NCBI GenBank assembly: GCA_036172245.1
Contig: JAYWIR010000007.1
Span: 4,216,001-4,280,000, forward strand
From: Raillietiella orientalis
Lineage: Eukaryota
Length of the DNA stretch: 64,000 bases
Reading direction: 5' to 3'
The translations under genes and the position numbers were made by a program. Numbering within the stretch: the stretch's first letter is position 1; each line of letters opens with the position of its first letter. The notes under the pieces were generated by a model. That model was given only the letters and a program-made list of their open reading frames with translations. It made no database searches and was not told where the DNA came from. Of the stretch, positions 9,761-64,000 are shown one piece after another.

Positions 9761-12700
9761 ATGTGGAAAATGTGCGAAATTAAGCTCTTAGTATTTTTTG
9801 CATTTGTTTGCTTTTGCCACACAGTTGAGTGTGTTGATAGGAACAATTTCAAAACTTGCGAGGACAGCGCATTTTGTAGGTAAGACTCACCGTGAACTGT
9901 GTTTGTGCATGTATTTCTTTTGTAAACACAGAAGGAACCGCAAGTGGGAACCAAAAAAGAGTCCATTTGAAGCTGATCTGGAATCAGCTACTGTGTCTGC
10001 TTCTGAAGTTACCGTCGACTTGCTGAATGTAGAAACGAATGTACGTTTCAAATTGATAGTGCGTGGATTTGAAAAAGGAATATTAGAATTCAAAATAAAT
10101 GAAAAATATCCTCTGAAACAACGATTTGAGGTACCTTATGTTATTTCTCCCCTAGATTCGAGCAGGTAAGACGAGCTTTAATGTTTGAATATATTATTAC
10201 AGGCATATCACAGTTTTCAGCTCAGGGAACACTTAGCTCACAGATTGACTTTGGAGTTCTCTGGATACTTTGTCACAGTTTATGCCCAACCTTTCCATGT
10301 GGAGGTTTTGCGTGGTGATGTACCAATAGTTCAGCTGAATGCTGATGGAAGACTCAATTTTGAGCACTTTAGGACCAGGCAGGACAGGTTGAACAAAACC
10401 CATATCTTGAAAAAGTTATGATGCCAAGAATACCAGGGTGCCCCATCAGCAGAATGTCACAGAAGAACAGCTGAAAGGAAATGAACCAGCTGCTGGGGAA
10501 GCAGTATTAAGTGAAGCTTCGTGGTCAGATGAGCAGAACCAGCAATTAGAAAATGAAAAAACTGTTGAAAATTCTGGTGATGAATTACCAGTTAAAGGTG
10601 AAGACCAGCAGGAAACAGAGCAAGTAGGGGAAAGCATTTCTGAAGAACCTGGACTTTGGGATGAGTATTTCAAGGTATTGTATCAAAATCTCCCCTTTTC
10701 CTTCCCCTTATAAAACATTGCATTATATTTTGTAGAGTCATCATGATTCCAAGGTTCATGGCCCCACATCTGTAGGATTGGATTTCAAGTTCCTTAATAG
10801 TAGTCATGTGTATGGCATTCCAGAACATGCTGTGCATCATTCTTTGGAAGATACTAAGGACAAGGATCCTTATCGCTTGTATAATTTGGATGTGTTTGAA
10901 TATGAGCTGCACAATCCAATGGCCCTATATGGTTCTGTCCCTATGCTGGTTTCCCACAGGTAATCTTGGTTCCCATCTATAAACTAAGCTGTGCTAAGCA
11001 GAGCTGTTCAGTACCGATTGCACTGTTGGCATGCTGTGGCTTAATGCAGCAGAGACATGGATTGATATTCAGAAGAGCCCCAAATCTGGAGTGTTATCCT
11101 CAGTGTACACATTCATGTCAGGAGAACGCAGTGATCCCTATGTATCAACGCACTGGTTCTCGGAGAGTGGCATCATTGATGTCTTCTTGATGCTGGGACC
11201 ACAACCTAAAGATGTTATGCTGCAATATGCCCAGCTCACAGGCAGCACACCTTTACCTCCGGTGACATTGAGTTATTAGAAGCAAGTGCTCATTTGTGCT
11301 GTAGCTTTTCTCTCTGGGATATCATCAGTGCAGATGGAATTACAACAGTGATGATGATGTGCGTAAGGTGGATGCCAAATTTGATGAACATGAGATGCCC
11401 TATGATGTTGTGTGGCTGGACATTGAGTACACAGATGGAAAAAGGTAACACAACTTCAAATTTTTCCATCCATCGGCTTTCTTTAGATATTTTGAAGTGG
11501 ACCAAAGCAGATTTGCAGAGCTACCCAAAGTGCTGCAAGAGCTTGCTCTCAAAGGTCGTGGCATGGTGGTCATTTTGGACCCCCATATCAAACATGATGT
11601 GAACTATCGTGTTTATCAAGATGTTACAAATGCAAATTGGTTAGTTAAGAATAATCAAAATAAGGACTTTGAAGGTAGGAAGCATGCCTGAAAACAGGAC
11701 CTAAGACTTGACTTGACATTTTAGGGTGGTGCTGGCCAGGATCATCAGTTTATCCTGATTTCTTCAACCCTGCAGTGCGCAATTACTGGGCTTCTAAAGT
11801 CACCTCATTCTTGGACTCTGCACCCAATCTGCATGTGTGGAATGATATGAATGAGCCTTCTGTGTTTAGTGGACCAGAAATTACCATGCCAAAGGATAAC
11901 ATTCATTATGATGGCTGGGAGCACAGAGATTTGCATAATATTTTTGGACTGCTGCATGTCAGTCAATATTGTTAATGTCAACAGAAAATAAGGTTTTCTC
12001 AGCATATGTCAACATTTCAAGGACTCCTGCAAAGATCAGGAGGTACCTTGAGGCCATTCATTTTGACACGTGCCTTTTTTGCTGGCTCCCAGCGTACTGC
12101 AGCAGTATGGACTGGAGATAATACAGCCAGCTGGGATCATTTGGAAGTGACGGTGCCCATGCTGCTCTCTTTGTCTGTAGCAGGCATTGCATTCTGTGGT
12201 GCTGATGTTGGCGGTTTCTTCAAAAACCCAGACAACGAGTTGCTAACACGATGGTACCAGGCAGCTGCATTTCAGCCATTTTTTCGGGCTCATGCCCATA
12301 TTGAGACAGAGAGACGAGAACCATACCTGGCTGATGAAGTGCACCGAAACATAAGGCGCAAGGTGCTCCAAAAGCGCCAAGCAATGTTGCCCTTTTGGTA
12401 CACATTGTTTTATGAAGCAGAGCTAACTGGAGTTCCACCTATGCGCCCTTTGTGGATGGAATTTCCTAAAGAAACTCGAGTATTCGACATCGATAACGAA
12501 TACTTGATTGGATCCAGTATGTTAGTGCATCCAGTGACTGCACCAAATGTGCATACGCAATCTGTGTATTTTCCTGGATCAAATGATTTGTGGTATGATG
12601 TGGATACTTATGAAGCCATTGCTGGTGGGCAGGAAAGAAACATTCCAGTACCTTTATATAAGGTGATTAAAAAAGATTTAACTCATTCTTATAACTCAGC

Positions 12701-13232
12701 ATGTCACAGATTCCAGTTTTCCAACGAGGAGGATCGATTATTCCCACAAAAGAACGCCCTCGTCGGTCAGCAAATTTAACTATGCATGATCCCATTACTT
12801 TGACAGTTGCTCCTAATGCTCAGGTGAGAAAGTTATTTCGCACCACAGCTGAACTTGTTTTCAGGGTCATGCTGTGGGTTACCTGTATGTGGATGATTAT
12901 GAGTCTTATGCCTATAGACATGGCATCTATCTGCTAAGCACATTTGAACTGGCAAATTACCATCTACAGTGCAAGTCAGTATCACAGCAATCTAAACTGG
13001 ATTAGCCTTGTGTTTCAGAATTTTCCATGATCATCCGGAATTTAAGACCCCAGTTTATATTGAGCGCATTGTTATAATGGGCTGGTCTCATCCCCTCCAA
13101 AGTGCAAAGCTTATTGTGGATTCTAAACATGAAACCAGTTTAAACAGCACATATGATGCTAGTCTGCAATTGTTGACCATTAGAAAGCCAGCAGTTTCAC
13201 TCAAAACGAATTGGACCTTAGAGCTCACTTAA
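9761..13232 (+). CDS. GANAB: Neutral alpha-glucosidase AB / ER glucosidase II alpha subunit (GH31); 13 exons: 9761-9879, 9932-10165, 10214-10387, 10437-10674, 10736-10959, 11012-11261, 11305-11444, 11487-11674, 11725-11957, 12003-12662, 12710-12823, 12865-12974, 13019-13232
   Basis: Signal peptide then [48 protein letters not shown], catalytic [34 protein letters not shown]. Twelve GT-AG introns keep the frame. AATAAA at 13236-13241. Confidence 0.97.
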
Positions 13233-19014: not shown

Positions 19015-19770
19015 AGGTTAGGACGGGAAGTTTCGAGCGCGGATACCCGCCCTCAGGTGGTCCGAGGGAAGAGCCGAAGACACCCCACGCTCGCGGGGGA
19101 CGTTGGTATAGCGCCACCGTCCACCTGAAGGGGGTGCCGCATGGCTGTGGCGGTCTCCGAGAGCGGCGTACCGAGCGTCGCGAGTTCGGACCCGGGGAAG
19201 GTGCGACGGGGGGGGAGGGGCGTCGTGGGTTTCGAGTCCCCCGCAAGATGACGCTGGTTGGCCTATTCAGGTGCGGCGGCACCGGGCCGGAAACTCCCGA
19301 TAACCCCGTTGACTGACCGGGATTGGAAGTTGACCCTCCGGGATCCTTCCAGGAATCAATGAGTCCTTCAGGACTCCCCTCCTGTTGCGGGATTGGAACC
19401 GTCCGCCCACCCCCCTCACAGGGGATCCCTCCATCTCTAGTACCGTGGAGCTGATTGGTACTCCCCTCTCGGGAGGAGTGCCTCTCCAGAGCGTATGGAG
19501 CGCCTTTCGGAGAAATCGGGAAGAATCCCTTCGGGGTTCTCTTCGGAAACAACCAGGGCTAGAGTTCCCTTCGGGGTTCCCTCTTAAGTGTGAGAGGAAC
19601 GGACTCCCCTCTCCGGAACCCTTCCTGGATCCATAGGGTGGTCCCTCTGGGGTCGCACACACTCCCAACTGGAATGGTCAGCACTCACCCTCGGGTGGTG
19701 TGGGCAGAGTCAAAGAGCTCCGTGACTTCCTCCCCCTCCCTCCTTCTTGAAGAGGCAAACGGTTCTTCGG
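19015..19770 (+). mobile_element. Copy B of the same repeat family, inverted relative to copy A
   Basis: Shares blocks with copy A. Also shares TTCCTGGAT.CATAGGGTGGTCCCTC, CACCCTCGGGTG, AAAGAGCT.CGTGA and GAGGC.AACGGTTCTTC.G with 63014-63165. Confidence 0.75.
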
Positions 19771-61900: not shown

Positions 61901-62475
61901 TGCTCCCGGGACCTGCTCGCGCCTTCCCTTTCGATCTGCTTCTTCCCTCCCGACGATCCAGGAATAAGCAGTCCCGAACGGCTGCTGCAGAGGAATTGGA
62001 TATCCCGTTCCTTGGCAACGGGCCCCGGAGGCCATCTCCTCCTTGAGCCTCCTTGCTTCCTGCTGACGAGTTCCAACGCCACCCAGAGAGATCCAAAAAG
62101 AGCAGCTGCCTTGAGCACTCGATACAGCACTGTCGCCGGCTGCAGGAGCGCACGGGAGTCCGGGATGCACCCCCGTGTTCCAGGAGATGGCCGGCGGTCA
62201 AGAGCACCCGTCAAGAGCCCCGCCTTGCTGCAACATTTCTGCGCTCCCTCTTCCCCGTGCTGTTCTCCCGCTGGTGCTGGCGATCCCCTCGGGGCTCGCA
62301 ATAGGGGACGCTGAGACCTCCTCCCCCATGCACTCGGAAGCGACCGTGCAAGCACGTTCCATGAGCACCACCTCCCTGGAAATCTGAGATTGCCCCCTCT
62401 CATCGCGGGTCCACCTGGTTCCTCCGGACCAGACCACTGATCCCCCCACCTCCCCCATATGAGGACCACCGTGCG

Positions 62476-62576
62476 CACGCAAAGTGAGGTTCACACCCCG
62501 TGCCCTTCCAAAACGTAGTTCAGCTTGCTGGCCACCAGATGGGTGGCGTATCAGACATCAAGCTGATAAGAACAGA
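62476..62576 (-). pseudogene. U2: 5'-truncated U2 snRNA fragment (stem IIa, IIb, decayed Sm site, stem III-like hairpin)
   Basis: Minus strand TCTGTTCTTATCAGCTTGATGTCTGATACGCCACCCATCTGGTGGC..AACTACGTTTTGGAA matches U2 TCTGTTCTTATCAGTTTAATATCTGATACG. Stem IIb GCCACC/GGTGGC is intact. The 5' part containing GTAGTA is absent. Confidence 0.85.
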
Positions 62577-63010
62577 TTTATTTCGCGGCTTAGAAGGGAG
62601 CATTAAAGGCTGTGGAGGGGACGGCTCTGACTTCCCGCCTTAGGAATGGGGCTGTTGCAAGGTGTCCGAAGGTGTTCACTTCCCAGGGAATCCCCTTTCA
62701 TACTCTTCGGCAACGTCGTCGATCTCGTCCCAGAGCTCCTGTCTCTAACGTTCTTTTTTGCTCGTGCAGGATGTCTGCATCATCCGGATGAGTGTCTCAG
62801 CCTATGGGTCCAGTGAATGTCATGACCGTGCCGGATGCACGAGGCCACCCCAGCTTACCTCATTCAAACACCTGCGCGGGACTCCCAGTTCTCAAAGGGC
62901 TGAGTCATTTCCCGGCGTCGACCCTTCCCCGGGCGCGACGATCGGTACGCCGCGCGCGGAGAAGGCAGCCAACTGGGGGTCTCCGCAAATCGGCGTGTCC
63001 CTGGTGCCGC
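62577..63010 (-). mobile_element. 3' end of a U2-targeting RLE non-LTR retrotransposon (Utopia/NeSL group)
   Basis: Minus frames HADL..VPIVAPGEGSTPGNDSAL*ELGVPRR..VASCIRHGHDIHWTH..* resemble the RLE C-terminus (P.VVG.LGSW.P.N...L..LG..RRY...I..S.DIY..H). About 200 nt of 3'UTR ends in AATAAA directly abutting U2 TCTGTTCTT. Confidence 0.75.
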
Positions 63011-63013
63011 ATC

Positions 63014-64000
63014 ACTCTTCCTGGATTCATAGGGTGGTCCCTCCTAGGTCACCCATCATGACTGGGAGAGTCAACACGCACCCTCGGGTGACGTGTACAA
63101 CGTTAAAGAGCTTCGTGAGCGCCCCCCCCCCCCCCCCCCCCAAGGAGGCGAACGGTTCTTCAGGGGGGAATGGCGTCGCCTGCATTCAAGAGATGCCAAA
63201 AGAAAATAAAAAAAGTTCCTTGGGGATGAATGCTGGCATGCCGACCGGTTTCCCCCACAAATGTAGAGGAGACAGTAACTAAATAAAAAATAAAAGACGG
63301 GATGGAAGGGACCGGGGTCTTTGGTTTCATTTGTTCCTTTCTTTCTAGAAGCGGCTGTGTGTGGTGGCGACCTCCCTGGTGACTCTTTCTGGCAGCCGTT
63401 CTCGTGAAAGCGGCCGACATATTGGTGGCCTCCCTTCCCCGCGAAGGAGACTCCAACACGTGGCGGACGTCGCATCCGCTCTATGGTGACAGTCCGATCT
63501 TGTCGCCATCACGGCGCCCGCCTTCAGTCCGCCTTGCGTGAGGAAGCGGCTCGGCAAATTCGAAGCGGGGGGTCCTGCGGGTGGCGGACAGCCCAAGCGA
63601 GTCCCCGCCACAAGTCCTCCAGGGCACTCCAGCCCAACAAAAGCGATTCCATCGCCTCGCACCTGAAACGGTTCGGGGAGGCAACCCTCCCTGAAAGCAG
63701 GTGCCTGCGCTGATTGCACCGGAATCCCCAGTGCAGAAACAGCAGAACATCCCGTTTCCAACGGAGCGGGAGCACGGAGGTGCCCACACTTAGGGAAAGG
63801 ACCACGGGTTCTTCGAGGAGGTAGGGGGAGGAAGGGGTGCACACCAAGCAGGTCAACCCACCGAAGGAGCCCCCTTGTCTGGAAACGAGGAATGGTGACA
63901 TTCACCAACTCGCTCGCCCCGTAGCCGTCCAGGAGTTTCTCGGCTCCTGCCATCTTGCATGCCACTGGTCGGCTGTTGTCCCCGTTTGCCCTGAGGGGGC
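63014..64000 (+). mobile_element. Copy C: structured 5' leader plus decayed N-terminal zinc-finger/Myb-like region of an R2/NeSL-type element, running off the window
   Basis: Twin hairpin shared with copies A and B. Then SIASHLKR, RCPHLG..FEEVGGG(R)GVHTKQVNP (cf. C..C...F...G.GVH....HP) and DIHQLAR, with frameshifts. Confidence 0.6.

Follow-up and report, generated by a model that had tools for sequence, protein, structure and literature searches.

In R2-type retrotransposons a nick cut into the target DNA by the endonuclease primes reverse transcription at that very place, and R2 is expressed by co-transcription from the promoter of its host gene. A Utopia-U2 join is likewise made where the element endonuclease nicks U2 DNA and reverse transcription is primed at the nick. 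Utopia carries N-terminal zinc fingers, a central RT domain and a CCHC zinc knuckle ahead of a C-terminal RLE, and its insertions in arthropods are expected to lack target-site duplications. For the U2 snRNA genes, the main text of Kojima and Jurka (2015, PMC4640811) puts the Utopia 3' junction at nt 39, identical to that of Keno, the two elements being separated by their endonuclease type. Keno is U2-specific according to the available text of PMC4494074 as well. The main text of PMC4640811 also lists planarian LIN/R5 relatives in 28S and leaves unanswered how a target of low copy number can sustain several Utopia lineages. The mode of Utopia transcription is not addressed there, nor does that text contain the words transduction, co-transcri(ption) or promoter.

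The locus described here lies in a stretch of 64,000 nt of Raillietiella orientalis DNA (the window) and is a commonplace fossil, a known element at its known site. It resembles Utopia in that its 3' end is joined to U2 nt 39 (Rfam alignment), in that its last ~ 50 codons match the RLE C-termini of U2-flanked relatives, and in that a CCHC knuckle would precede the RLE, although here the knuckle is found 3 kb off and inverted, and its ownership by the window copy is presumed. Several lineages per genome, more disrupted than intact U2 copies and occurrence in arthropods are further likenesses, as far as the main text of PMC4640811 goes. In contrast to the at most five co-maintained families described for Phytophthora in that text, this genome contains at least 56 junctions, which are dispersed over ~ 30 contigs without promoter or head (the U2 5' piece) and of which the 49 compared represent 42 end types. 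Keno shares the same U2 3' junction (PMC4640811, main text) but has an AP-type endonuclease where an RLE-type tail is seen here, the RT having been compared with L1 ORF2 in place of Keno itself. The likeness to R2 lies in the same domain order and in the nearest solved structures (9nl2, 9nl3, 9dou and 8gh6), and the expression of R2 by co-transcription is the model that we borrow for a U2-Utopia read-through RNA; R2 differs in its target gene and, according to the main text of PMC4640811, in its clade, the tree presented here being one without an R2 sequence. Lastly, the dispersed U2 heads (nt 1-37), often with direct repeats overlapping the RNA end, are similar to the tailless retropseudogenes in the available text of PMC5322556. 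These and the snRNA/LINE chimeras of PMC4494074 are, in the text available for both, mammalian and L1-driven, whereas in this genome the heads stop beside the site of Utopia, and fusions to Utopia sequence exist for some of them.

The junction in the window and its surroundings

The locus is made up of the following features.

62386-62493, plus strand: another U2 3' end, convergent with the first and decayed further, running from ~ nt 126 to its terminus, with ~ 45 nt of U2 3' flank (profile positions 88-197)
62494-62576, minus strand: U2 snRNA nt 39-121 in Rfam numbering (Rfam E 9e-6; profile E 2.9e-19)
62577-62762, minus strand: ORF end and 3' UTR, ending AATAAA (extent taken from the position between profile match and junction)
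62763-62910, minus strand: last coding part of a Utopia-type RLE protein, the C-terminal helix with HWTHR motif, frameshifted and with stops (DNA profile E 4.5e-15)
63017-63395, no strand assigned: two abundant dispersed repeats (~ 63395-63160 and 63163-63017) bounding the element fragment (40 of the 40 scored candidates match, of 1537)
63019-63118, no strand assigned: one arm of a 102-bp inverted duplicate (96%), whose far arm lies past the window end at window-equivalent 66122-66223

On the minus strand, GCGAAATAAA (62586-62577) runs without spacer into TCTGTTCTTATCAG, which starts at 62576. This bears out the exact junction at the U2 target site that the initial annotation had described on this strand, with U2 beginning at Rfam position 39; the join position is ambiguous by one base, U2 position 38 being the last A of AATAAA. 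In an E-value scan of 62000-63100, positions 38-84 of the Rfam U2 model (RF00004) aligned to 62577-62531 (37.7 bits, E 9e-6), a covariance-model match below gathering level. The gathering-score scan of the whole window returned no U2 match because 37.7 bits is less than the gathering score of 46. A U2-tail DNA profile built from 21 other loci lengthens the match to 62576-62494 (83 nt, E 2.9e-19), a piece that we take, also from the Rfam structure line, to comprise stems IIa and IIb, the Sm-site region and the start of stem III. Compared to the copy on C389 it shows 12 substitutions in 83 nt and is therefore a decayed copy. In this comparison 10 substitutions run from A/T to G/C and none from G/C to A/T; the bias fits the GC-rich surroundings, and GC-biased conversion may be its cause.

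The RLE-like C-terminal peptide upstream of the junction, another claim of the initial annotation, was recovered by both profiles, short and broken as it is. Indeed, an RLE DNA profile from 17 other loci matches 62910-62763 (E 4.5e-15, including a frameshifting gap) and an RLE protein profile from 31 pieces of other loci matches 62866-62783 (i-E 3.1e-8). The GC content of 62577-62762 is 0.54, above the 0.39 median of the other junction ends, and none of 48 other junctions exceeds 58% identity with the window over the final 100 nt ahead of the join. Tblastn of the relatives against the window gave no match at E 0.01, a profile from 16 pieces of relatives without U2 flank scored the window RLE tail at -1.9 bits, the catalytic PD-(D/E)xK part of the RLE is unrecognisable in the window, and 62911-63016 has no significant profile support. 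Pfam detected no RT near the junction in 23 window frames and one flank frame, where the matches were a glycosyl hydrolase 31 exon and one sub-threshold match, nor was an RT found in window-equivalent 55-73 kb around the truncated copy.

The C-terminus of one U2-flanked relative elsewhere in the genome matches R2 structures (E 3.2e-14), and the RT of a genomic relative (RVT_1) matches R2 at E 1.9e-48 versus 8e-19 for L1 ORF2. Among 8000 candidates scored, long proteins only, that RT has 33 database matches at 28-42% identity; most of the named ones belong to spiders and ticks, a beetle and a wasp, which points to an animal host, probably an arthropod, and three carry PF02902, the Ulp1 protease family. 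The preference of the initial annotation for Utopia over Keno is upheld by the RLE-like tail together with an RT much closer to R2 than to L1 ORF2. On sequence grounds the window element is thus Utopia-type and Keno unlikely, because the nt 39 junction is the same, the two types are split by endonuclease (PMC4640811, main text) and the tail is RLE-like.

The second U2 piece abuts the first one tail to tail (E 2.6e-4 in the window, 7.3e-5 in the 18-kb region). Read by eye, the short-spacer tail-to-tail join of the window recurs at L051, and among 15 loci picked for their flank ~ 12 have an extended flank in common and 6 display a second arm. Tail-to-tail U2 pairs are present at L009, L010, L016, L037, L039 and L051, each arm with its own A-rich upstream end; at L009 a variant base and similar upstream ends common to both arms suggest conversion between the arms. 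Two candidates were rejected here: a further Utopia 3' end preceding the inverted U2 on the plus strand (best z 3.6, score under the best shuffle), and twin priming for the inverted piece, as the segment order is unfitting and L051 has the same join with both arms.

Past the window end, a decayed CCHC zinc knuckle of Utopia type adjoins the far arm of the inverted duplicate, at window-equivalent 65955-66086 on the plus strand (G000:C7:4281955-4282086, L068; protein profile i-E 1.4e-9, DNA profile E 4.2e-11). Judging from the inverted duplicate, this knuckle, ~ 3 kb off, is probably the front of the window copy, split away by inversion; the family rankings of knuckle and window tail disagree and leave the link unconfirmed on their side. 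The initial annotation had noticed neither the inverted U2 3' end next to the first nor the displaced knuckle, nor how large the radiation is. Elsewhere, two copies (74% identity) of a ~ 150-bp repeat, abundant and dispersed, occupy 63014-63161 and 19618-19768 of the window. A glycosyl hydrolase family 31 exon is located at 11976-12776 on the plus strand, inside an AT-richer block at ~ 5-17 kb (GC 0.41-0.47), and most of the remaining window has a GC content of 0.60-0.68 with no Pfam match in the frames tested.

U2 junctions, heads and antisense 28S elements across the genome

The G000 assembly (210 Mb, 491 contigs) contains at least 42 U2 matches by DNA search and at least 46 by Rfam. Among the fetched loci we counted 49 distinct junctions at the same U2 position, two loci running through the target site being left out, and 8 further loci supplied 7 junctions and 1 head. 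The genome hence holds at least 56 junctions of the kind that the initial annotation had proposed to look for. U2 starts with exact TCTG in 34 of the 49, with variants of TCTG in the others. At 70% identity the last 100 nt before these junctions form 42 clusters; the junction ends have a median identity of 0.53 (0.47 when shuffled) and the U2 parts one of 0.78, and both age and family diversity feed the 42 end types. RLE homology is found within 800 nt upstream of 24-26 of the 49 junctions (three loci have short upstream sequence).

The U2 promoter region is present in four copies (C389, C482 and two on C30), each followed by U2 nt 1-33, 1-36 or 1-37 and then by non-U2 sequence. Heads are thus kept at 4/4 promoter copies and, therefore, insertion keeps the head in this genome. 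C389 displays a complete insertion (promoter, head, truncated element, tail), with an 11-nt repeat of the head's end between U2 head and element and two U2 bases missing. Head and promoter are both present at the C30 array locus, unlike at the dispersed tails: 15 of 15 dispersed junctions, with tails 83-98% identical to C389, show no U2 head or promoter in ~ 9.5 kb upstream. The sole upstream signal among these 15 is a weak 12-nt match on the wrong strand. Searching the assembly for the U2 5' piece (L088-L117, L120-L131) with one mismatch allowed in 16 nt, by which old heads are missed, gave 90 pattern matches compared to 5 in the control, mostly ending at nt 37; two of 60 listed tails have one of these 90 listed heads within 15 kb. 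Upstream sequence is shared among 42 head loci in the case of the promoter pair and in no other. Direct repeats of at least 9 nt occur at 8 of 30 heads versus 0 of 90 controls and often overlap the RNA end. At two head loci, L095 and L104, inverted pieces are seen. Promoterless heads exist as well: C57 starts exactly at U2 +1 and shares its element 5' end with C482, where a promoter is present, C12 carries a head, an 810-bp element and a 43-nt tail, and C9 and C15 carry a head fused to element sequence.

The assembly yielded no intact U2 gene: its highest-scoring Rfam match (115 bits) is a truncated tail, and a search with a 17-nt pattern spanning the target site found two exact matches and five with one mismatch, none of them followed by a canonical tail. 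At one further locus a U2 head extends a few bases beyond the target site. The intact U2 genes probably reside in an unassembled array, at an assembly gap involving the end of C30, C389 and C482. L061 (C3) has a U1 snRNA gene (100 bits) at ~ 1.35 kb from a divergent U2-like sequence that spans the Utopia site uninterrupted (pieces 1-126 and 1475-1572).

Four Utopia-related RLE elements, on C81 (L167), C72 (L170), C33 (L174) and C83 (L182), have 3' ends antisense to 28S rRNA at one position, which we take to lie shortly upstream of the R2 site, and their 3' ends are four different ones. There are 95 RT matches in the genome and the relatives carry RVT_1. In a quick RT tree of 59 rows (SH-aLRT support only; one short locus omitted, and no named Utopia, NeSL or R5 among the rows) the copies from this genome group in a single clade (96) next to proteins of spider, tick and beetle origin; the 28S-antisense copies nest inside this clade (100) and the U2-associated lineages branch earlier. 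This branching order suggests a target switch from U2. At L175 (7937-8700) and L179/L158 (C33, C72) a 3' end is joined to a look-alike of the 28S target and then to an antisense 28S piece, an arrangement which may have arisen by tandem insertion of one element into another's 5' end. The 3' flanks of the relatives L136/L164 (C19), L140 (C26), L145/L146 (C9), L155 (C31), L141 (C27) and L162 (C76) are neither U2 nor 28S, and the flank common to C19 and C26 is possibly another target. A literature search, largely without subscription papers, found no antisense 28S site for NeSL/R5-type elements, no Utopia transduction and no transduction by site-specific elements in snRNA genes; the available text of PMC5035012 and PMC13580325 holds nothing on the antisense 28S site or on Utopia transduction.

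Origin of the window copy

It is very improbable that the junction derives from Keno (Tx1 clade, AP endonuclease) or from an unrelated repeat joined by chance to a U2 pseudogene. The Keno 3' junction is identical (PMC4640811, main text), and the window peptide is short and missed by the profile of non-U2 relatives; but its tail matches the RLE C-termini of U2-flanked relatives, whose protein in turn matches R2 structures (E 3.2e-14), and the RLE homology upstream of 24-26 of 49 junctions exceeds all reverse-strand controls, so that this origin is largely refuted. A different question is whether a U2 gene was disrupted on this spot. The initial annotation had concluded that a U2 gene copy was inactivated here, which is not supported: neither the U2 head (best E 0.62) nor the U2 promoter (best E 0.68) is detectable in window-equivalent 55-73 kb, and the genome pattern is one of dispersed copies. 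For a dispersed U2 gene at this place, killed by Utopia insertion at nt 39 and later deprived of promoter and head, speak the exact junction, the adjoining second U2 remnant, which suggests a former U2 cluster, and the rearranged state of the region; moreover, according to the main text of PMC4640811, Phytophthora and Nasonia have more disrupted than intact U2 genes, and in Phytophthora the heads are lacking. This course of events is nevertheless unlikely, given that head and promoter are lacking here and at all 15 dispersed tails checked, some of which are 96-98% identical to C389, while the head is present at 4/4 promoter loci. A displaced copy of a Utopia-U2 join is more likely than a U2 gene knocked out on the spot.

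Two routes of displacement were considered, and we favour retro-copying over DNA dispersal as well as over in-place insertion. To the proposal that the locus is a long-dead, 5'-truncated, dispersed Utopia (NeSL-clade, RLE) copy, retro-copied from U2-Utopia-U2 read-through RNA, we give an even chance. The founding insertion would have taken place in a U2 gene elsewhere, and a read-through RNA spanning U2 promoter, U2 head, element, U2 tail and flank would have been reverse-transcribed into ordinary DNA with 5' truncation, i.e. as a 3' transduction; owing to the truncation, the join would have arrived here without head or promoter. The copy would later have been split by repeat insertion and inversion and eroded by A/T-to-G/C substitutions; it has no present function. 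Consistent with this, head and promoter are missing in 55-73 kb and at the 15 dispersed tails while C30 has both, the head is retained at all 4 promoter copies, and only 2 of 60 listed tails are near a listed head (15 kb). Promoterless head-element fusions occur at C57 and C12, C57 starting at U2 +1; the 42 head loci share no upstream sequence, the promoter pair excepted; and the inverted second U2 of the window stops at ~ nt 126, like the end of a read-through RNA. On the other side, no target-site duplication is demonstrable, since 36% of 2932 random pairs score as high as the two sides of the presumed complete copy, and a copy so old and rearranged could have lost head and promoter through decay or deletion. 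Heads are also missing upstream of in-place Phytophthora insertions (PMC4640811, main text), the head list with its one mismatch in 16 nt overlooks old heads, and template switching from U2 RNA, as in the snRNA/L1 chimeras in the available text of PMC4494074, would give promoterless fusions without co-transcription. DNA duplication could equally have spread the shared inverted pair. Indeed, an old piece of U2 array, consisting of a tail-to-tail pair with its Utopia joins, might have been moved by segmental duplication, ectopic recombination or DNA-transposon capture: the inverted pair and flank recur (by eye, flank at ~ 12 of the 15 chosen loci, second arm at 6), the short-spacer join is common to the window and L051, and homology stops at varied points. 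Such pieces would be expected to include a promoter or head in some cases, but this is seen in 0 of 15, and the promoterless copies start exactly at U2 +1, the mark of an RNA and not of a DNA break; we therefore hold dispersal as DNA to be rather improbable.

Implications for Utopia expression and spread

Beyond the window, retro-copying would be part of a wider process, which we propose tentatively and at somewhat less than an even chance: Utopia would be driven by the U2 promoter as a head/element/tail RNA and routinely copied off target, scattering dozens of promoterless tails and ~ 85 heads, and the same radiation would have yielded the nested switch from U2 to antisense 28S. The window locus matters as one sample of this large radiation, and the proposed genome-wide dispersal is more interesting than the locus itself.

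Should the heads and tails prove to be retro-copies of transcripts from the U2 promoter, they would provide a testable answer on the expression of Utopia. In that case a Utopia-U2 junction alone would be no proof of a killed U2 gene, which would affect counts of disrupted U2 genes, and the junction in the window would be a fossil of RNA-level transduction. The genome would then represent a natural series for RLE expression in snRNA genes and for target change. Furthermore, the nested 28S-antisense clade, if it is a target switch within one genome, would be useful for mining RLE elements for site-specific insertion.
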